DNA of 47,223 nt. Source: an archaeon (GTDB taxonomy: Archaea > Aenigmatarchaeota > Aenigmatarchaeia > Aenigmatarchaeales > DATDXV01). Positions 468-44,004 of the stretch are shown one piece after another. Every line of letters starts with the position of its first letter. Positions within the stretch are counted from its first letter, which is position 1. Where the stretch lies: assembly GCA_035289205.1 (NCBI GenBank), contig DATDXV010000008.1:1-47223 (forward strand). Direction: 5' to 3'. The notes below the pieces were generated by a model. The model ran no database searches. It was not told where the DNA came from and saw only the letters and a program-made list of their open reading frames with translations. The position numbers and the translations under genes are program-made.

Positions 468-584
468 TGGTGTCGCGGGTGAGATTTGAACTCACGACCC
501 CCAGATCTCTCATCGCACATGCGTGCTAGACACTCATATTTGTGAATATGAGTCTGGTGCTCTACCAGGCTGAGCCACCGCGAC
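468..584 (-). tRNA. tRNA-Met or Ile2 (anticodon CAT) with one 40-nt intron
   Basis: Cloverleaf GTCGCGG-TG-GCTC-AGCCTGGTA-GAGC-A-CCAGA-CTCATA[intron 507..546]A-TCTGG-GGGTC-GTGAG-TTCAAAT-CTCAC-CCGCGAC-A-CCA. The intron is at 37/38 with BHB central helix CTCA/TGAG and 3' bulge AG|A. CCA is encoded. G1-C72 argues against an initiator tRNA. Confidence 0.9.
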
Positions 585-1306: not shown

Positions 1307-1427
1307 TGGCGGGCCCAGTGGGATTCGAACCCACGGCTTGCAGCTGACTTCGCTCTCATAGCTTTCGCTCGATTCTTTTAAGACAAGCTTAAAAGGCTGC
1401 CACTCTACCAGGCTGAGTTATGGGCCC
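1307..1427 (-). tRNA. tRNA-Lys (anticodon TTT) with one 44-nt intron
   Basis: GGGCCCA-TA-ACTC-AGCCTGGTA-GAGT-G-GCAGC-CTTTTA[intron 1346..1389]A-GCTGC-AAGCC-GTGGG-TTCGAAT-CCCAC-TGGGCCC-G-CCA. BHB central helix CTTT/GAAG, 3' bulge TC|A. CCA is encoded. Confidence 0.9.
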
Positions 1428-1752: not shown

Positions 1753-1923
1753 TGGCGGTCGGGCCGGGAAATTCGCTGCTTCAGCAGTTTCGAACCCGGG
1801 TGTGTTGAAGGTTAACAGTAGTTAACCCTTCTCAGCCTCTCTGCATTAGTATTCGACAGAGCCGAATACTAACCACTATTAGCTGAATAGAGGACTTACC
1901 TCACAATCAAATACTACCCGACC
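1753..1923 (-). tRNA. tRNA-Asp (anticodon GTC), 171-nt gene with four intervening sequences
   Basis: Exons give GGTCGGG-TA-GTAT-AGTGGTTA-GTAT-T-CGGCT-CTGTCGA-GGCTG-(variable)-CCGGG-TTCGAAT-CCCGG-CCCGACC-G-CCA. Intron 1 is 1878..1910 (33 nt, position 13/14; central helix TAGT/GCTA). Intron 2 is 1839..1853 (15 nt, 37/38; CTGT/GCAG). Intron 3 is about 1804..1828 (variable region, GGTTAAC/GTTAACC hairpin, TGAG/TTCA; boundaries uncertain). Intron 4 is 1770..1788 (19 nt, 59/60; perfect hBHBh': CCGGG-TTCG-[AAA]-CTGC..GCAG-CGAA-[TTT]-CCCGG). G73 and G15/C48 are present. Confidence 0.8.
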
Positions 1924-1974: not shown

Positions 1975-2643
1975 TTATAGATCTAGTAGCTTTAATTTTT
2001 CATGTACACCTTCTCTAATTCTATTTTTCTTATGAACTATTCTTATATGGGGTAAGATGCAATTTTTAATAAAAAGCACGTTTTTTCTAGAAATACAGAA
2101 CTCTGTTTCATGCCATCTCCCTTCAACTATTCTTCCATCTCTGAAAACAGATATTCCATATCTTTTGGTAACAGATACACCACATTTCATGAATTTCTCA
2201 ATAATGCTTATTAATTTCTTATTTTTCTTGTCATCTGTTATCCTTATAACATATTGGGGAGATTGCATTCTTTTGATTCTTACATCTCCGTCTCCATCTA
2301 TTACTCCTGCTAGATAAGCGCCAAAATTTGCTTCATAATTAGATACCCAAGCAGGAATTCCTGTTTTTGCTATACCCTCTTTTCCAAACCTTTTAAGTAA
2401 CTTATTCACAGACGTATGTATGTCAATTGTTCCATCTCTTAGAGTATGTATGGTTAAATCTCTACCGTATACTTCCCTTAGTGTTTTTCGGAACTCTTTT
2501 AACATCGGTATTGATTTGATACCAACATGTACTCCTATGTCTGTTCTTTTATAGATTTTATTTCTTTTCATAGTATTGTAAGTAGTTAGCTTTCCGTCGG
2601 TTTGTAGCACGCCTAAGAAATATGCTAATCTTTGATAATCCAT
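1975..2643 (-). CDS. LAGLIDADG homing endonuclease, double-motif, free-standing
   Basis: 222 aa with two LAGLIDADG motifs: LAYFLGVLQTDGKL near the N-terminus and FGAYLAGVIDGDGDV mid-protein. Visibly more A+T-rich than its neighbours. Not embedded in a recognisable intron or intein. Confidence 0.8.
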   Translation of the reverse strand: MDYQRLAYFLGVLQTDGKLTTYNTMKRNKIYKRTDIGVHVGIKSIPMLKEFRKTLREVYGRDLTIHTLRDGTIDIHTSVNKLLKRFGKEGIAKTGIPAWVSNYEANFGAYLAGVIDGDGDVRIKRMQSPQYVIRITDDKKNKKLISIIEKFMKCGVSVTKRYGISVFRDGRIVEGRWHETEFCISRKNVLFIKNCILPHIRIVHKKNRIREGVHEKLKLLDL

Positions 2644-3964: not shown

Positions 3965-4114
3965 TGTCTCCAGCGTCCTGATCTTCCCGTCTTTTCGACA
4001 GTACAAACCAGATCGATGCGCCGATTCACTTCCGTGTTCGTTCCACGTCAATAGCTATTAAAACCACAGACCGAATGGGAACGGGTCTTACCGAGCGCTC
4101 TTTGACCGGAGACA
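3965..4114 (-). rRNA. rrf: 5S rRNA gene (150 nt) containing a 32-nt BHB intron; mature about 118 nt
   Basis: The sense strand begins UGUCUCCGGUCAAAGAGCGCUCGGUAAGACCCGUUCCCAUUC, then the intron, then CGAACACGGAAGUGAAUCGGCGCAUCGAUCUGGUUUGUACUGUCGAAAAGACGGGAAGAUCAGGACGCUGGAGACA. Helix I is 9 bp (UGUCUCCGG/CUGGAGACA). After splicing, loop C reads CCCAUUCCGAAC followed by GGAAGUGAA. GUACUG and CGGGAAG elements are present. A TATA box sits at -26 and a T5 run follows the 3' end. Confidence 0.85.
4041..4072 (-). other. BHB intron inside 5S rRNA loop C (32 nt)
   Basis: Canonical hBHBh'. Outer helix GUUC/GAAC, central helix CCAU/GUGG, bulges UC|G and AA|C on opposite strands, inner helix GUC/GAC. Cleavage after the 2nd bulge nucleotide joins ...CCCAUUC to CGAAC.... 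Confidence 0.8.
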
Positions 4115-4149: not shown

Positions 4150-4300
4150 TGGTCCCCGCTGGGTGATTTGAACACCCGACCTATCGGTGATTGCGGAGCG
4201 TTGCTAAATGATAAACACTAAGCGTGCTCATCTACAGCCGATCGCTCTACCAGTCTTTTAGCTACAGACTCCCACTAGAGTCTATAAGAGCTAAGCGGGG
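4150..4300 (-). tRNA. tRNA-Tyr (anticodon GTA) with two introns
   Basis: CCCCGCT-TA-GCTC[intron 4257..4287, 31 nt at 13/14]AGACTGGTA-GAGC-G-ATCGG-CTGTAG[intron 4189..4231, 43 nt at 37/38]A-CCGAT-AGGTC-GGGTG-TTCAAAT-CACCC-AGCGGGG-A-CCA. C1-G72 is typical of archaeal tRNA-Tyr. Intron 1 is a perfect BHB (central TAGC/GCTA, 9-bp inner helix). Intron 2 is relaxed. Confidence 0.9.
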
Positions 4301-5768: not shown

Positions 5769-6995
5769 CTATAAGACTTTGCCCCATCCGATAAGATGCC
5801 ATCTCTCCCCGTACTTCCTGGAAAGCACGATCTTCTCCCCTTTCCCTATGCATATGGGTATTCTTAGGTCAAACGAAACAACGCCCTTCTTAAAGCCTGT
5901 TGCTGTCCCGACAGTCTTCGCTATCCCTGCGTTCAAAAGAAGCAGTTCCCCGTTCTTGACGCTCTCTATTCTCTGCTCTCCAATCTTGTCAAAAAGAGTT
6001 ATTTGGGCGCTTAGGGAGTTCAAAACAGGCGGCAGTTCCCTTCCTGCAAGGTTTCCTCCTATGGAATCAGCTTTTGTGTTGGAGGGGTCCAGCGTTGTTT
6101 TGATGCCAAGCAGCCCTCCCGGTCCTGCTTCATCAAGATCCTTTCCAGCCTTCTGTATTCCAATAACCTTTGTTTTGAGGGGAACGGTCTTGCTTCCGAT
6201 CCTGATGCCGGGCCTTATTTCTATTTCATCATTGATCTTAAGCATGCCCTGGACAAGCGATCCGCCCAGGATCCCCCCGTTCATCCCCTCAGGCTCTGTC
6301 CCGGGCCTGTTTATGTCAAATGATCTTAGAACCATTAACCTGGCAGAAAGACTGGGATCCCTCTTTGGCGTTTTTATGATTTCTTCTATCGCCTCCAGCA
6401 GCTTGTCTATATTTACCCCCTGCTTTGATGACACAGGGACTATAGGAGCATTTTCAGCAACGCTTCCCTTAAGGAACTCTTTTATCTGCCTGTAATTATT
6501 CAATGCCTGCTCCTTTGCAACAAGGTCTACCTTTGTCTGCGCTATGACGATGTTCTTTATCCCGACTATGTCTAAAACCTTTAGGTGCTCCCTTGTCTGC
6601 GTCTGGGGGCATTCCTGGTTCGCAGCTATCACAAACAGGACCCCGTCCATCAGGGCTGCGCCGGAGATGACTGTTGCCATTAATGTTTCGTGCCCCGGGG
6701 CGTCAACAAACGAAACAGTTCTTACAGCTTCGCACTTCTCGAAGTCCTTCTTGCATTTCTCTGTCAAGGACAAACTAGAGCATTTTGTGCATTTGTAGAT
6801 AGTTGCGTCAGCATATCCTATCTTTATTGTAATGCCCCTCTTCAATTCTTCGGAGTGCTGCATCGGCATTTTTCCCGTTATTGCCTGGACTAAAGTGGAT
6901 TTTCCGTGGTCAACGTTTTCGGTCAGACAAAAAGAATTTGTCTAATGTCCGAGCGTCCCTATATTGACCTCTGGAATCAGTCTGGGGTCAGTCAT
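5769..6995 (-). CDS. eif2g: translation initiation factor aIF2 gamma, interrupted by a 30-nt intron (exons 6947..6995 and 5769..6916)
   Basis: Exon 1 encodes MTDPRLIPEVNIGTLG(H). Exon 2 continues (H)VDHGKSTLVQAITGKMPMQHSEELKRGITI...DAPGHE...TKVDL.... The spliced length is 1197 nt, or 398 aa. The track ORF 5769..6869 begins at an internal Met and lacks the P-loop. Confidence 0.85.
6917..6946 (-). other. 30-nt BHB intron in the aIF2-gamma coding sequence (contains an in-frame TAG)
   Basis: Sense AUUAGACAAAUUCUUUUUGUCUGACCGAAA. Central helix UCGG/CCGA (4 WC bp), bulges AC|A and AA|A, inner 9-bp helix UUAGACAAA/UUUGUCUGA with loop UUCUU, outer helix GACG/CGUU. Excision gives CUC GGA CAC GUU GAC CAC GGA AAA = LGHVDHGK. 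Confidence 0.75.
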
Positions 6996-7031
6996 ATCTC
7001 TATGAAGAACTGGGAATCTTATAAAGGCAAT

Positions 7032-9819: not shown

Positions 9820-10113
9820 ATGCCGCCAACCGCAGAGATAACATTTTATCGGGGCTTTGACATGCCTGTGACAAGACTTGAGGAAACGCCCGATCCTGTT
9901 GAAGAAATTGCAAGGAACTTCCTGAAGTATCTGAAAGGAAGGGGCATAGATTATACTGTAGAAGAACGAGATCTGAAGGAGGGGAGGCTTGTTATAAAGG
10001 GTGAGAGTCTGAAGGAACTTGACGTAGAAGGTGCGATGAACTCTGCCAAGCGCATTTACGCTAATTTCTGGGGCAAGAATGTCGGGACGCAAATAGAATT
10101 CAAAAAAGACTAG
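9820..10113 (+). CDS. hypothetical protein (97 aa)
   Basis: ORF with an upstream TTTAAA-like box (GATTTAAATCC about 9788..9798). Confidence 0.5.
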   Translation: MPPTAEITFYRGFDMPVTRLEETPDPVEEIARNFLKYLKGRGIDYTVEERDLKEGRLVIKGESLKELDVEGAMNSAKRIYANFWGKNVGTQIEFKKD

Positions 10114-12041: not shown

Positions 12042-13769
12042 TTATTCCTCTCCGAGAATCTTTTTTGCGAGCTTTACTTCGTCCCATCTCTCTAGATCTT
12101 CCAGAACCTTCAGGTCATTTCTGCTTATGATTGTATAGAGCTCATCATCTTCAAAGATATGCCTGCCCACTGTAGGCCCTGAGATAGAAACCGCTACCTT
12201 CTCCCCTTTCTCTGCCTTCTCCTTCGTAACACCTTCTGTTTGTATCGCCTTCACCTCTCCGATTTCTTTTCCCCCCTTCTGCAGCATTGCTCCGGAAATT
12301 AGAATTCCGTCAAGGACTTCAACTCCAACTATTGCAGGATCATTGTTCCTGAAGACATTGCCTGGAATTATCACAATCTTCGCTGGCCTCTGTATGGAAT
12401 TGAGTTTTTCTACAATCAGCTTCTCCTTCTCCCCCTTCACATAAGAGTCATACTCTTCGAAAAGCCTGTAAATGATGTTGTTAGAAATAAGCTTGATTTT
12501 CTTGTCCTTGCACTCGTTCACAATGCCCTCCTCCACAGGAGAGTTGAAGACAATAAGAGCTCTGTTCAAAGAATCCGTGCTTGTTTCAGTTTCTGTCATG
12601 TCCCTTCTTGTTATTAAACCGACGCTTGCCTTTTTGATCGGGATGCTCCTTTCTTTCAGCATGCCTATTATTGCCTCCAGGCTTCCAAGCGTATCTGCCT
12701 TGACAACGACTCCCTCTCCGCCCTGCTCAATCTCTATGCTTTCCACCTCGCTCTGGACCTCTCTCTTTGCCCCTTCCACCTTTTCCTCCCTGTCAACCGT
12801 TATGATCGGGCTTCCTGCAACAGCCCCTTCAACATTGAGCGCGGATATCTTGACGCCAGCTGCAGCGGAAACAGCGTCAACGCTCTTGAACTGTTTTTCT
12901 ATCCTAAGCTCTTTGAGCGGAGGCGGTTTCAATAAAGCTTTGATTTTTGTAACAATAGGGTTTCTTCCTCCTATTATTAGCCAGTCCCCTTTCTTGACCT
13001 CTCCATCATAAAGAATCACATCAATTGTTGTTCCCAGCCCTCTCACATCCTTTACTTCCAGAATTGACCCTCTTCCCTCACCGGGCTTAATTTCCAGATC
13101 TTTCTTAAGAAACGACTGAGCAAGGCCAGTTAGCATGGCTAGAAGTTCCTGTATGCCCTCACCTGTTACAGAAGAGCAGGGAATGACAGCAATTGTGTTC
13201 TTGAAGTCAGAAACCCTGTCATATCTGTCTGCATTGAAGCCCCTCTCCGAGAGCTGCGCAACTATCGTGTAGAGTCTCTTGTCGAATTCGTCCTTGATCC
13301 TCTCCTGCTGTTTTTCATAAGACTCAATAGACAAGCCGTTCTCGTATGCCCTCCATCCTGCTATCCTGTCAATCTTTGTTGCTGCTACGACAAATGGGGT
13401 CTTGAACTCCCTCAGTATTCTTATTGATTCTTCGGTCTGTTCTTGTATGCCTTCGTTGATATCTATGACAAGGATCGCCAAGTCTGCGATAGAAGATCCT
13501 CGTTTTCTTATAGCTGTGAAAGCTGCATGGCCAGGCGTGTCAAGTATAAGCAGGCCAGGAACCTCAATCTTCAGGTTCATCTTCTTTATGATTGCATCGC
13601 ATGTTTTGCTTATTGTTTCAGCAGGAATCTCTGAGGCCCCAAAATGCTGGGTTATTGCTCCAGCTTCTTTGTCTGCCACAGTCGTGCCTCTGATCCTGTC
13701 TAGCAGAGAGGTCTTGCCAGCATCTATGTGACCAACTGTTACAATTATCGGCTGTCGTATCATATCCAT
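12042..13769 (-). CDS. infB: translation initiation factor aIF5B
   Basis: RQPIIVTVGHIDAGKTSLLDRIRGT, DTPGH, ATKIDR. 575 aa. Confidence 0.9.
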   Translation of the reverse strand: MDMIRQPIIVTVGHIDAGKTSLLDRIRGTTVADKEAGAITQHFGASEIPAETISKTCDAIIKKMNLKIEVPGLLILDTPGHAAFTAIRKRGSSIADLAILVIDINEGIQEQTEESIRILREFKTPFVVAATKIDRIAGWRAYENGLSIESYEKQQERIKDEFDKRLYTIVAQLSERGFNADRYDRVSDFKNTIAVIPCSSVTGEGIQELLAMLTGLAQSFLKKDLEIKPGEGRGSILEVKDVRGLGTTIDVILYDGEVKKGDWLIIGGRNPIVTKIKALLKPPPLKELRIEKQFKSVDAVSAAAGVKISALNVEGAVAGSPIITVDREEKVEGAKREVQSEVESIEIEQGGEGVVVKADTLGSLEAIIGMLKERSIPIKKASVGLITRRDMTETETSTDSLNRALIVFNSPVEEGIVNECKDKKIKLISNNIIYRLFEEYDSYVKGEKEKLIVEKLNSIQRPAKIVIIPGNVFRNNDPAIVGVEVLDGILISGAMLQKGGKEIGEVKAIQTEGVTKEKAEKGEKVAVSISGPTVGRHIFEDDELYTIISRNDLKVLEDLERWDEVKLAKKILGEE

Positions 13770-26127: not shown

Positions 26128-26165
26128 AGGAAACAGTTGCTGGTTGGTGTTTATATTGCTTTGCG

Positions 26166-26471
26166 TTAAGAGATAGACTCCAGACCAAGCTGATCTAATC
26201 TGGCATCTAAAATCTGCTTTGCCAATTCCCCGCTCTCATTTGCTATCAAGTATGCTTCTTCTATGCTCCTTTTTACTGCTTCCGAATTCTCTTCTTTTGT
26301 GAATCGTATTGCTCTTTCAACATACTTGTCTATGGCTTCCATATTGTTATTATACAGTTCCAGTCTCTCCTGGGCGGAAAGAATAGGCATCTCTTCTTCA
26401 TGGTATTCTGTGTTTTCAGCTTCCATTTCAACCTGCATCTCTTCAAATCTTGTTGTGTTCATCATTATCAT
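26166..26471 (-). CDS. hypothetical acidic helical protein (101 aa)
   Basis: The start ATG lies 1 nt after the stop of the upstream ORF, suggesting coupling. Confidence 0.45.
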   Translation of the reverse strand: MIMMNTTRFEEMQVEMEAENTEYHEEEMPILSAQERLELYNNNMEAIDKYVERAIRFTKEENSEAVKRSIEEAYLIANESGELAKQILDARLDQLGLESIS

Positions 26472-26472
26472 C

Positions 26473-26754
26473 TCAAACGATTTCTATCCCAATGGGTCTG
26501 GCAATCATGTTTGCCTCTTCTATATACTCATCTGCTTTGCTGTGCTTCATTGCAGCATCAGACTCCCTTCCCTGTTCCTTTAGCCTGTCTCCCTCTTCAC
26601 GCACAGAGGTCGCAAGAGCGACATAGACATAGATATCGCTAAGCTCTGATCCGTATTTACCGAAGTCTCTGTCAAGCGCTCCTGTAGGTATTCTGCTTGC
26701 GAGCTGTCTTTCCGTAAGTTTCAGATGTCCATTGTTTTCTGGCATATTCATCAT
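26473..26754 (-). CDS. hypothetical protein (93 aa)
   Basis: ORF preceded by GTATTTAAATTTAAC (about 26775..26789). Confidence 0.45.
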   Translation of the reverse strand: MMNMPENNGHLKLTERQLASRIPTGALDRDFGKYGSELSDIYVYVALATSVREEGDRLKEQGRESDAAMKHSKADEYIEEANMIARPIGIEIV

Positions 26755-26819
26755 AGAAAGTAGAGTATGCGGGAGTATTTAAATTTAACTCTTTTAGCCG
26801 AGTTAAAAGTCCTAGAGAT

Positions 26820-32169: not shown

Positions 32170-33425
32170 ACCCTGTTTCTTTTGTAATTGTCCAGCCAGT
32201 TTATGAAATCATTCTTCTCTATGTTTAACGCAGCCCTTTCAAACTCGTCCGCCTTCACCATCCCGAAGAAGTACTTCTGCTTTATTTCTACATTGACAAC
32301 ATGGATTATTTCATTGTCCTTGAGCAGCTTCTTTCCATCCTCGTCCAGCTCCCCTATTATGGCCTTTGGACCCAGCGTAATCAGGTACCTTAGTATGGGC
32401 TTTGAAGGCCTGTACTTCTTTATCCATACTATTTTATCCCTCAGTCCAAACTCCTGATGCAGCTCTGATATTGTGTCTGTTTCAAACCTGTCAATGGATA
32501 CAACAGGCAAGAGGCCCTTCTGCGTTATTTCCCTCAATTCGTCTTCCTTCTGGCGTTCTTCTTTTGTGGCACTCTCATAGTGCTTGTATTTGCTCAGCTC
32601 CAGCTGCAGCCTGTGGATAAGAATATCCCTGTTCACCACCTCCTTTTCCTTCAGAACCCTCTTTCTTGCCTCGTCATTTTTCTGCATCTGTTCCCGCTGG
32701 TACACTGATTTCTGCTCTTCAAGGCTCTTCGCCTTCGCTTCCAATTTACTTGTATACATCTTTAGAATATCATAGCTTTTTTGCAGATCCGCCAGCTTGG
32801 CCCTGAGGACATCCGCTTCCGGATTAGTACTTGTCTCAGCCTTCTGCTCCTGTTTGTTTTCTTGCCTTTCTGTTTCCTTTGAGAATATCATTTCAATTGC
32901 TTCAGAAATGTTCTTCGCTTCTTTCTTCAGGAGCATCTCTTTTATCCTTTCCGTCTCGGTTTCCAAGCCCAGAGACTGCAGTGCAAGTTCTATTTTGTTG
33001 AATCTGGAAGCAAGGGATTTGTAGCAGACAAGCGCAGCCGCCAAGGAGTCTTTTTCATGGGTATTTTTCGGTTGCCTCTCAAGTTTGTATGACTTCAGGA
33101 CAGCTATCTTGTCCTTTACTGGAACATCCCTCTCTGGGGTAAAGAGCTTGCAATTAAATGCCGCAGCCATGTTCTTGCATGAGGAGGGGGCATTTGCTTT
33201 GTCTGTCGCGATAATCAGGGGCCTCCCTATTCTTATTATGGATTGTTTTATGCTTGATAAGCTAGCGTTCCTTTCGCTGAAAACACCTAAGACATTCCCC
33301 TGCAGGTCTATGACAGAATAAGCAGAATTCACTCCGGGATCAAAGCCGACTATGATAGGTTTTGCCATAACCTGAATTCTATGAGTAAGTATAAAACTCT
33401 TTAGATAACCTTTAATATCAGGCAT
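32166..33425 (-). CDS. DUF460 domain protein (RNase H-fold nuclease-like N-terminus plus long coiled coil)
   Basis: KPIIVGFDPGVNSAYSVIDLQGNVLGV...RPLIIATDKANAPSSCKNMAAAFNCKLFTP. The likely start is the ATG at 33368 (MAKPIIVGF). Confidence 0.65.
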   Translation of the reverse strand: MPDIKGYLKSFILTHRIQVMAKPIIVGFDPGVNSAYSVIDLQGNVLGVFSERNASLSSIKQSIIRIGRPLIIATDKANAPSSCKNMAAAFNCKLFTPERDVPVKDKIAVLKSYKLERQPKNTHEKDSLAAALVCYKSLASRFNKIELALQSLGLETETERIKEMLLKKEAKNISEAIEMIFSKETERQENKQEQKAETSTNPEADVLRAKLADLQKSYDILKMYTSKLEAKAKSLEEQKSVYQREQMQKNDEARKRVLKEKEVVNRDILIHRLQLELSKYKHYESATKEERQKEDELREITQKGLLPVVSIDRFETDTISELHQEFGLRDKIVWIKKYRPSKPILRYLITLGPKAIIGELDEDGKKLLKDNEIIHVVNVEIKQKYFFGMVKADEFERAALNIEKNDFINWLDNYKRNRV

Positions 33426-42761: not shown

Positions 42762-43969
42762 ATCTTCGGCTTCTCTATCCTTATTACATCCAGCTCTATG
42801 CATTTGCATTTCTTATTCAAAAGAGAACTTACAGCGGGATTTGTCCTTCCTTCATCACCGCTTACAACCTCTTTCACATAAAGCCCCCCTTCGCATTCCA
42901 GAACCAATTCAAATGTCTTGCTGTTTTTGTATTTCCATTTGACACTCTTGATAGTCCTCCTTCTCACAATGTCCGCCCTTCTATGAGCTACTCTGTTGGG
43001 TGTTCTTTGTTCTATTATTCTCTTGAGGCTTCTTAGAACCGAGAGTTCTTTCTTTGAGATAGGCTTATCGCATCTTACAAGCATTCTGTATGTTTTGTCA
43101 AGTTTCAGCTCCTTGACTCTTTTTACGTAGCTGCTGTCTACAATCCTTAGTCCCTTTACCTTTACCCTCTTATCTTTGTTTATCAGTTTCTCCGCGCTCT
43201 TCAGGTCAATCTTTCTCTTCAGTGGATCCTTTATCTCCAGAACGAATGGTCTGGAGGCTAGACACAATGCATCTTTGTCTTCTCTCCCTCCCCCATGAAA
43301 TGTATGTCCAATTCCATGGGATGCTTTCATTACAGGCTTTGCAATTATCTCCTCTACAGATGTTTTGTGATATCTTCTCCATTTCGCTTGTGGCATATTT
43401 CTTGCAAGCTTGCTGTAATAGCCGAAGATGAACAGCGGGGTTATTTTCAAGCCAACCTTCTTTGCGTCCAGATCGAGGAACATGACAACATCCGGCCTTT
43501 TGAAGTCTGCCCTGATATTGAGCTTTGCTTCAACCAGCTTTCCCACTTCCCTGTTTATTTCGCCCTTTATAGGTTCGCAATACTCTATTCCTGTTCTCTC
43601 CCATAGCTTCTCCTCGTTTTCAAGGATCTTCTTTGGAGGCTTTGTGCCTACAAGAAATGTCGAGAAGTGAATCCCCTTCGCGCTTTTTACCGCCATTTCC
43701 GCAAACTTGTCTAATTTCTCCAGAGCGCCTTCGCATACCCAGCATCCAGATCTCTTTCCCTCCATCTTGATCTTTCTGAACTTGAAATCATGGAAGTTGG
43801 AGGGGTCAACATCAAGCTTCTCGCCTGAATCCAGGGCGAACGCAACAGCGCTCCTAAGCAAAGCGCCGCGCTCTTTGTTTGTGTAGCCAGAGAGGAGTTT
43901 TGAGAACTGGCGTCCTAAACATCTATCGCACACAGGTTTCTCCAGAACCCTTGCAACTTTGTCAAGCAT
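42758..43969 (-). CDS. pus10: tRNA pseudouridine synthase Pus10
   Basis: VCDRCLGRQF, CWVCEG (THUMP/Zn module), RTPNRVAHRRADIVRRR, GGLYVKEVVSGDEGRTNP. The real start is MLDKVARV at 43969. The track ORF extension overlaps the upstream gene. Confidence 0.85.
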   Translation of the reverse strand: MLDKVARVLEKPVCDRCLGRQFSKLLSGYTNKERGALLRSAVAFALDSGEKLDVDPSNFHDFKFRKIKMEGKRSGCWVCEGALEKLDKFAEMAVKSAKGIHFSTFLVGTKPPKKILENEEKLWERTGIEYCEPIKGEINREVGKLVEAKLNIRADFKRPDVVMFLDLDAKKVGLKITPLFIFGYYSKLARNMPQAKWRRYHKTSVEEIIAKPVMKASHGIGHTFHGGGREDKDALCLASRPFVLEIKDPLKRKIDLKSAEKLINKDKRVKVKGLRIVDSSYVKRVKELKLDKTYRMLVRCDKPISKKELSVLRSLKRIIEQRTPNRVAHRRADIVRRRTIKSVKWKYKNSKTFELVLECEGGLYVKEVVSGDEGRTNPAVSSLLNKKCKCIELDVIRIEKPKI

Positions 43970-44004
43970 TAGAAGACTATGCTTATTGTAGTATTTTAAT
44001 GCGC

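Follow-up and report, generated by a model that had tools for sequence, protein, structure and literature searches.

How does an archaeon produce aIF2-gamma, a core translation GTPase, from a gene whose reading frame is broken inside the P-loop? The question is raised by contig DATDXV010000008.1 of assembly GCA_035289205.1, a stretch of 47,223 nucleotides (nt) referred to here as the window, which carries the aIF2-gamma gene on its minus strand. Translation from the ATG at 6995..6993 proceeds for 17 codons (MTDPRLIPEVNIGTLGH) and then meets a TAG at 6944..6942. Past this stop the unchanged frame reads TNSFCLTEN-VDHGKSTLVQAITGKMPM, and ten codons after the TAG the same frame gives VDHGKSTLVQAITGKMPMQHSEELKRG (VDHGKST) and stays open until the stop at 5769. 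The longest open reading frame (ORF) with an ATG start at the locus, 5769..6869, begins internally at MPMQ and lacks the G1 motif. An earlier note on this DNA had described both the broken frame and the internal start, accurately in each case, and had attributed them to a small archaeal bulge-helix-bulge (BHB) intron. Here we present a computational analysis of the insert, from which we conclude, with a probability of about 0.87, that it is a 30-nt BHB intron of the pre-mRNA, situated in the codons of the G1/P-loop motif (GHVDHGKS) and removed by the splicing endonuclease EndA and the ligase RtcB.

The limits of the insert were defined by homology. Deletion of 6917..6946 (ATTAGACAAATTCTTTTTGTCTGACCGAAA, 30 nt) leaves a 1197-nt ORF reading ...IGTLGHVDHGKST, in which GHVDHGKS is restored as had been claimed. 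Its 398-residue product matches the aIF2-gamma equivalogs end to end (profile positions 3-406), with 536.6 bits on PRK04000 (cut-off 315) and 520.1 bits on TIGR03680, an NCBIfam equivalog profile with a cut-off of 514.5. Gene calls made on the unspliced sequence, from which G1 is missing, reach 500.8 and 472.2 bits on TIGR03680 and fall under that cut-off; it is the spliced form that is full length, above the curated threshold and equipped with the G1 motif GHVDHGK[ST]. Set against intact homologues, the gene has exactly ten additional codons, cleanly inserted within GHVDHGK (GHV|DHGK). The first exon, 6947..6995, comprises the ATG, 16 codons and one base, the first, of His17 (MTDPRLIPEVNIGTLG-H) and lines up with the N-terminal ends of intact aIF2-gamma sequences; the second, 5769..6916, identified by its profile matches, supplies the last two bases of His17 (AC) and continues with VDHGKS to the stop. 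The publicly annotated proteins of this locus and of related ones have 385, 364 and 366 residues; all lack G1 or start within the insert, which bears out the expectation that gene callers would truncate the protein. The host is a DPANN-type archaeon whose closest named relatives are Aenigmatarchaeota.

The minimum free energy (MFE) fold of 6900..6965 on the minus strand is a BHB (-17.2 kcal/mol, z = -3.4; none of 200 shuffles was as stable). The whole motif occupies 6912..6957 and was also recovered by a strict motif scan. Its 4-bp central helix, UCGG (6952..6949) with CCGA (6922..6919), separates two 3-nt bulges on opposite strands, ACA on the 5' side (6948..6946) and AAA on the 3' side (6918..6916), and helices flank the bulges in both directions: an outer helix of 4 bp, GACG (6957..6954) with CGUU (6915..6912), and an inner helix of 9 bp, 6945..6937 with 6931..6923, closed by a UUCUU loop (6936..6932). 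In sequence contexts of 146-396 nt, 16 of the 17 BHB pairs stay in the MFE structure; pair probabilities are about 0.9 for the central and inner helices and about 0.46 for the outer helix. The earlier note had described this same structure as a textbook BHB. The pairing stands as described, but the label requires a small correction, since the unpaired C at 6953 offsets the outer helix and makes of the 3' bulge a 1x3 internal loop, so that the motif is slightly relaxed on that side.

In the cbf5 pre-mRNA, cleavage falls between the second and third residue of each bulge (PMC2738675). Applied to the window, this rule joins GGAC to ACGUU and yields GGA CAC GUU GAC CAC GGA AAA UCC (GHVDHGKS), the in-frame junction that had been foreseen. 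The protein cannot itself fix the exact cut, because three junctions (C|A..A|A, CA|U..A|C and CAU|..C|G) equally encode GHVD; only the BHB rule picks 6917..6946. Fold, junction and alignment thus agree on an intron of 30 nt, AUUAGACAAAUUCUUUUUGUCUGACCGAAA, with an in-frame UAG at 6944..6942. Two other classes of removable element were considered and rejected. Group I and group II introns are built around a ribozyme core and measure hundreds of nucleotides; the insert has 30 nt, and an Rfam search gave no hit in this region with E values up to 1. An intein is not compatible with a 10-codon insert that has a stop (two stops in the relative described below) and no intein motifs.

A diverged relative (GCA_053536835.1, here L001) is syntenic with the window and encodes an aIF2-gamma of 88% protein identity. 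At the corresponding place it reads GGC CAC GTC GAT TGATAGGTAGCTTTGTTGCCTCTCCGAAAA CAT GGC AAG, with an insert at 9932..9961 that again measures 30 nt, contains the in-frame stops UGA UAG and separates Asp19 from His20, 6-8 nt downstream of the intron site in the window. The L001 insert has a BHB-compatible fold at -21.6 kcal/mol, 0.7 above the MFE of -22.3 kcal/mol, in which (G.A)UCG/CGA(A) makes up the central helix, AUU and AAC bulge out, and the inner helix has 9 pairs with a single mismatch. Only one in-frame junction follows from the 4-bp spacing rule. We rejected an alternative BHB that uses the sequence-homologous CCGA as its central strand, as it would entail either a 28-nt out-of-frame excision or the loss of Val-Asp. 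When the two introns are compared in structural register, 8 of 14 pair positions have changed on both sides with the pairing kept, so that across these two lineages the structure has been maintained through compensatory change. Aligned in sequence register instead, the introns agree at 18 of 30 bases (shuffle p = 6e-5), those of the 3' end CCGAAAA included. These comparisons argue that the two inserts are homologous, structurally constrained and differently placed, the intron position having apparently moved by 6-8 nt since the divergence while the length and the 3' end were kept.

The same comparison bears on the possibility that nothing is spliced at all and that the stop is read through or recoded, leaving ten extra residues in the P-loop. 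An insert length that is a multiple of three in both lineages would suit such a scheme. L001, however, has two consecutive and different stops, the ten inserted codons are unrelated between the lineages (TNSFCLTEN vs VALLPLRK), and the insertion would split the invariant GHVDHGK loop; we regard read-through as extremely unlikely.

An assembly or sequencing artefact, which the earlier note had raised as a possible refutation, can be given only a vanishingly small probability: a segment of 170 nt spanning the insert recurs without change in 11 other assemblies, made from different samples by different pipelines (ENA, JGI and Logan), and L001 provides a diverged version in another genome. The remaining homologues are at most 66% identical and, where named, belong to Aenigmatarchaeota or Micrarchaeota. 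The insert is absent from all of them; nearly all are full length, with 98-100% of the query matched, and four that were translated and aligned showed no insert. The comparison of orthologous loci that had been proposed as a check therefore finds a homologous 30-nt insert in L001 and intact genes in the more distant homologues. Scans of genome and metagenome contigs with the spliced protein returned distant relatives only (45-54% identity) and no new intron-bearing member of the clade; their tBLASTn matches begin at query residue 5-8, apart from one that covers the C-terminus only. An exact look-up of both spliced proteins, from the window and from L001, in a collection of 15 billion proteins found neither of them, and thus no intronless allele or assembled cDNA.

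If the interrupted gene were a pseudogene, a short insertion would have killed this copy and an intact aIF2-gamma elsewhere in the genome would do the work. The in-frame stop is what such a copy might show. The evolutionary record is of another kind: between the window and L001 the whole gene has a non-synonymous divergence (dN) of 0.061 and a synonymous divergence (dS) of 1.34, hence a dN/dS of 0.046, and the insert has persisted over this distance. Exon 1, the 17 codons upstream of the stop, shows 8 synonymous differences and 1 non-synonymous difference. Both exons are under strong purifying selection, as expected of a living gene whose exon 1 is translated. The region upstream of the ATG is conserved as well. 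Over the 44 nt compared, the final 32 nt differ from L001 at one position while synonymous sites are near saturation (dS 1.3), and this block includes TTTATAA at -30..-24 (7019..7025, minus strand; 24-30 nt upstream of the exon-1 ATG), a TATA-box-like element that, from its position and conservation, is the probable promoter. Its spacing suggests a leaderless or near-leaderless transcript starting at exon 1. To these findings can be added that, apart from the intron-bearing clade, the protein collection contains no protein above 66% identity, and that exactly 30 nt with a compensatorily changed hairpin is found in both lineages. We consider a pseudogene very unlikely, and the comparative evidence together with the dN/dS of 0.046 supports the spliced intron that the earlier note had preferred to a decaying gene or an artefact.

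Translational bypassing of the type known from phage T4 gene 60, in which ribosomes would skip the hairpin on an unspliced RNA, has in its favour that a stop codon followed by a stable hairpin occurs near a Gly codon, and that the codons for Gly16 and Gly21 match within each lineage (GGA/GGA in the window, GGC/GGC in L001). This is, however, the sole pair of matched codons, and a hop from one to the other would cost the protein HVDH and with it the GxxxxGK[ST] loop, so that no matched codons join to give a functional protein. A productive hop, from CAU to the codon before GUU, would have no matching take-off and landing codons, and the stop and the Gly codon are not neighbours. Bypassing would also offer no explanation for the geometry of the BHB, for cut sites that fall in frame or for the many BHB introns of neighbouring RNA genes, and we judge it highly improbable, on a par with the pseudogene.

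These neighbouring genes, all on the minus strand, provide an internal control for the aIF2-gamma prediction, as the same cutting rule applied to them gives recognisable products. tRNA-Met(CAU) (471..584) and tRNA-Lys(UUU) (1310..1427) have introns of 40 nt (507..546) and 44 nt (1346..1389), each in a canonical BHB at position 37/38; both genes were missed by default ARAGORN and found by Rfam, and cutting by the rule gives 74-nt products that are recognised by ARAGORN as tRNAs for Met(CAT) and Lys(TTT). tRNA-Tyr(GUA) (4150..4300) has two introns, one of 31 nt in the D-loop (4257..4287), where the central helix is UAGC/GCUA and the inner helix measures 9 bp, and one of 43 nt at 37/38. It lies under the Rfam threshold (22.6 bits) and is recognised by ARAGORN after removal of the D-loop intron. 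tRNA-Asp(GUC) (1753..1923) contains BHB inserts at three or four places. One follows position 13 (1878..1910) and one lies at 37/38 (1839..1853); the variable region is interrupted at about 1804..1828, and the T-loop insert at 59/60 (1770..1788) is a perfect hBHBh'. With the inserts in place the gene is detected by neither Rfam nor ARAGORN, and ARAGORN calls tRNA-Asp after removal of the inserts. The first introns of tRNA-Asp and tRNA-Tyr occupy the same position (13/14).

The 5S rRNA gene, 149 nt long (3965..4113), also appears to be interrupted, by a 32-nt insert (4041..4072) in loop C. The BHB that flanks it is perfect: GUUC/GAAC forms the outer helix, CCAU/GUGG the central and GUC/GAC the inner one, with UCG and AAC as bulges. 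When each bulge is cut behind its second nucleotide, the product reads CCCAUUC|CGAACACGG, which is the Rfam consensus for loop C, and the Rfam alignment of the 5S gene is identical in a further sequence, L002. A literature search for '5S rRNA intron' returned no paper, and the insert may be an undescribed 5S rRNA intron. By these predictions the organism is rich in BHB introns: within the first 4.3 kb they interrupt all four nearby tRNA genes and the 5S rRNA gene. Neither this richness nor the shifted intron position in L001 figures in the earlier note. Sequence comparison of the aIF2-gamma intron with the tRNA and 5S introns of the window revealed no significant similarity; the only significant pair was the two aIF2-gamma introns. 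The 5S insert and the multi-intron tRNA genes mark this lineage as a good place to look for further BHB introns.

The pathway that we propose for aIF2-gamma would be as follows. Transcription would begin at or beside the exon-1 ATG. In the pre-mRNA, exon UCGG (Leu15-Gly16) would pair with intron CCGA, and the 9-bp hairpin of the intron would stack on this central helix, exposing the two 3-nt bulges. EndA would then cut between the second and third nucleotide of each bulge, producing a 2',3'-cyclic phosphate and a 5'-OH, and an RtcB-type ligase would join GGAC to ACGUU, restoring GHVDHGKS. GTP-binding aIF2-gamma would come only from the spliced mRNA, as the unspliced mRNA would stop after 17 codons. 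The presence of EndA and RtcB in the host is implied by its intron-bearing tRNA genes. Because the tRNA and 5S genes of the window need BHB removal, the host endonuclease would have to handle many BHBs, relaxed ones included; introns at non-canonical positions with relaxed motifs suggest an enzyme of broad specificity, such as has been discussed for DPANN lineages (PMC5829648).

It is also conceivable that an RNA-level activity other than EndA and RtcB removes the insert, or that splicing is partial and regulatory, coupling aIF2 supply to RNA-processing capacity. The relaxed motif in L001 is in keeping with either, and the cbf5 intron has been suggested to act as a negative regulator (PMC2738675). 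Nothing in the data, however, calls for a second machinery: the window motif is near canonical, and the organism by all signs processes many BHBs. We regard this variant as improbable, somewhat less so than the pseudogene.

Several points weigh against splicing by EndA and RtcB. Neither enzyme was among the 50 window ORFs scanned with Pfam, and the genome beyond the window could hold a second, intact aIF2-gamma copy. The BHB of the window is slightly relaxed through the unpaired C beside its 3' bulge. That of L001 is clearly relaxed, having a central helix of 3 bp with a G.A mismatch and a 3' cut placed in a 2x5 loop, so that its cut site is chosen by the reading frame and not by structure alone. 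The comparative evidence comes from two lineages only. Moreover, compact BHB-like hairpins occur at chance frequency, with 8 in the window vs 7.8 in dinucleotide shuffles. The significance of the aIF2-gamma motif lies instead in the coincidence of its predicted cut sites with a 10-codon insertion defined by homologues, and in its conservation in a relative.

The BHB intron of the cbf5 pre-mRNA is described by Yokobori (2009; PMC2738675) and reportedly also by Watanabe (2002) and by Yoshinari (2006). The earlier note had named cbf5 as essentially the sole documented precedent, and our literature searches agree: cbf5 of Desulfurococcales and Sulfolobales is the one gene for which they turned up a confirmed archaeal pre-mRNA BHB intron (PMC2738675). 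A 2025 structure paper on EndA (PMC12397907) cites only cbf5, as does a Haloferax study for protein genes split by endonuclease introns (PMC7714728). Our literature searches for other archaeal mRNA BHB introns and for DPANN mRNA introns returned only cbf5, predicted viral 12-bp inserts and a Haloferax mRNA site. The last is in the mRNA of HVO_1309 of Haloferax volcanii, where a BHB site in the 5' part of the mRNA and cleavage by the endonuclease are reported (PMC7714728); that mRNA, like the aIF2-gamma mRNA by our prediction, is a substrate of the splicing endonuclease.

The resemblance to cbf5 is close. The cbf5 introns measure 16-44 nt, often form relaxed BHBs, are in some cases multiples of three and interrupt the codon of a catalytic residue (PMC2738675). 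In both genes a short non-coding intron (30 nt here) interrupts codons of a catalytically essential motif, so that precise removal is required; a BHB spans the borders of exon and intron, and the cuts are predicted to fall between the second and third bulge residues; the intron interior varies and its borders are conserved; and gene callers mis-annotate the result. The differences are that the gene is aIF2-gamma, with an intron not homologous to those of cbf5, that the host is DPANN-type and not of the Thermoproteota, and that the intron sites of two sister lineages are 6-8 nt apart whereas those of cbf5 are at corresponding positions. The insert is accordingly no member of the cbf5 intron family, although the mechanism would be the same. 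Splicing of cbf5 has been demonstrated experimentally, whereas that of aIF2-gamma is predicted from DNA sequence. What would be new is thus the host gene, the superphylum and the shifted position. The motif and cutting rule are shared with archaeal tRNA and rRNA introns of the EndA/RtcB pathway as well, from which the present case differs in that the substrate is an mRNA coding region where the reading frame adds a constraint.

If the prediction is right, a second kind of archaeal protein gene needs RNA splicing, in a different superphylum and for a core translation factor. Splicing of mRNA by the tRNA machinery would then be no one-off, and could strike essential genes in the motif that they conserve best. 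In DPANN genomes, automated annotation will cut such genes short or turn them into pseudogenes without any warning, as illustrated here by three different wrong calls, and completeness estimates and metabolic inferences drawn from such genomes can be biased as a consequence.

The 6-8 nt difference between sister lineages is also a concrete case for the study of BHB intron movement. A further reading, on balance doubtful, is that the aIF2-gamma intron is mobile and retargetable, that its conserved 3' CCGA(AAA) would choose an exon partner UCG(G/A), and that the lineage may hold many BHB introns in coding sequences, their splicing being routine and possibly a regulator of translation initiation. 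Mobility of this kind would explain why the intron follows CUCGGAC in the window and GUCGAU, 8 nt downstream, in the sister lineage. Were it true, the locus would be direct evidence of sliding or transposition of a BHB intron within a protein-coding gene, and the organism would be a prokaryote with routine endonuclease-dependent mRNA splicing.

At the protein level as well, the P-loop of aIF2-gamma is a favoured site of removable elements, as the HMMER search described below revealed. Seven aIF2-gamma sequences from other archaeal lineages have 170-670 extra residues right after GHVDHGK, several of them matching aIF2-gamma only from the residue that follows GK, and one of the seven shows the intein signature GHVDHGK|CLS...CHN|TT. 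In those lineages, as here, the P-loop hosts a removable element whose imprecise loss would be lethal. Inteins, however, are translated and removed at the protein level, unlike the present insert with its ten codons and its stops.

The scan for other coding sequences broken by short hairpins, which the earlier note had proposed for the whole genome, was run on the window and identified no second split coding sequence. A loose BHB motif combined with an ORF-joining test gave 1323 candidates there, mostly joins of neighbouring genes, and no other split gene was identified among these or among the 8 matches to the strict compact motif. In the Pfam scans of the 50 window ORFs no adjacent ORFs matched consecutive parts of one family, and no second aIF2-gamma was present within the window. 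Truncation at the N-terminus of aIF2-gamma in other lineages was sought with an exhaustive HMMER search of 50%-identity representatives, which gave five candidates; the two that were inspected both proved to be something other than an intron. One has an intact P-loop and a late start call. The other, an unrelated aIF2-gamma (GCA_027026275.1, JALVOS010000535.1, 150..200), is split by a frameshift, CAC TCA TTCT GAA GAG (HS-TTCT-EELKRG), with no BHB insert; the frameshift may be either a sequencing error or real.

Some minor features of the region may be recorded. A free-standing ORF at 1975..2643 (minus strand), immediately upstream of tRNA-Asp, has weak matches to LAGLIDADG homing endonucleases, and L001 has a LAGLIDADG_3 ORF (12702..13409, minus strand) near its aIF2-gamma locus, on the opposite strand; no enclosing intron was found for either. 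A second compact BHB-like hairpin at 33367..33406 (minus strand), with a 9-bp inner helix and a 33-nt 'intron', lies directly upstream of the probable start codon of a DUF460 gene (MAKPIIVGFDP). An ATG would remain after its removal, and the match is probably due to chance or to a hairpin of the 5' untranslated region. Finally, two intervals of about 0.7 and 1.2 kb, 26128..26819 and 42762..44004, have no convincing ORF and no Pfam or Rfam match, and could hide disrupted RNA genes in this intron-rich genome.

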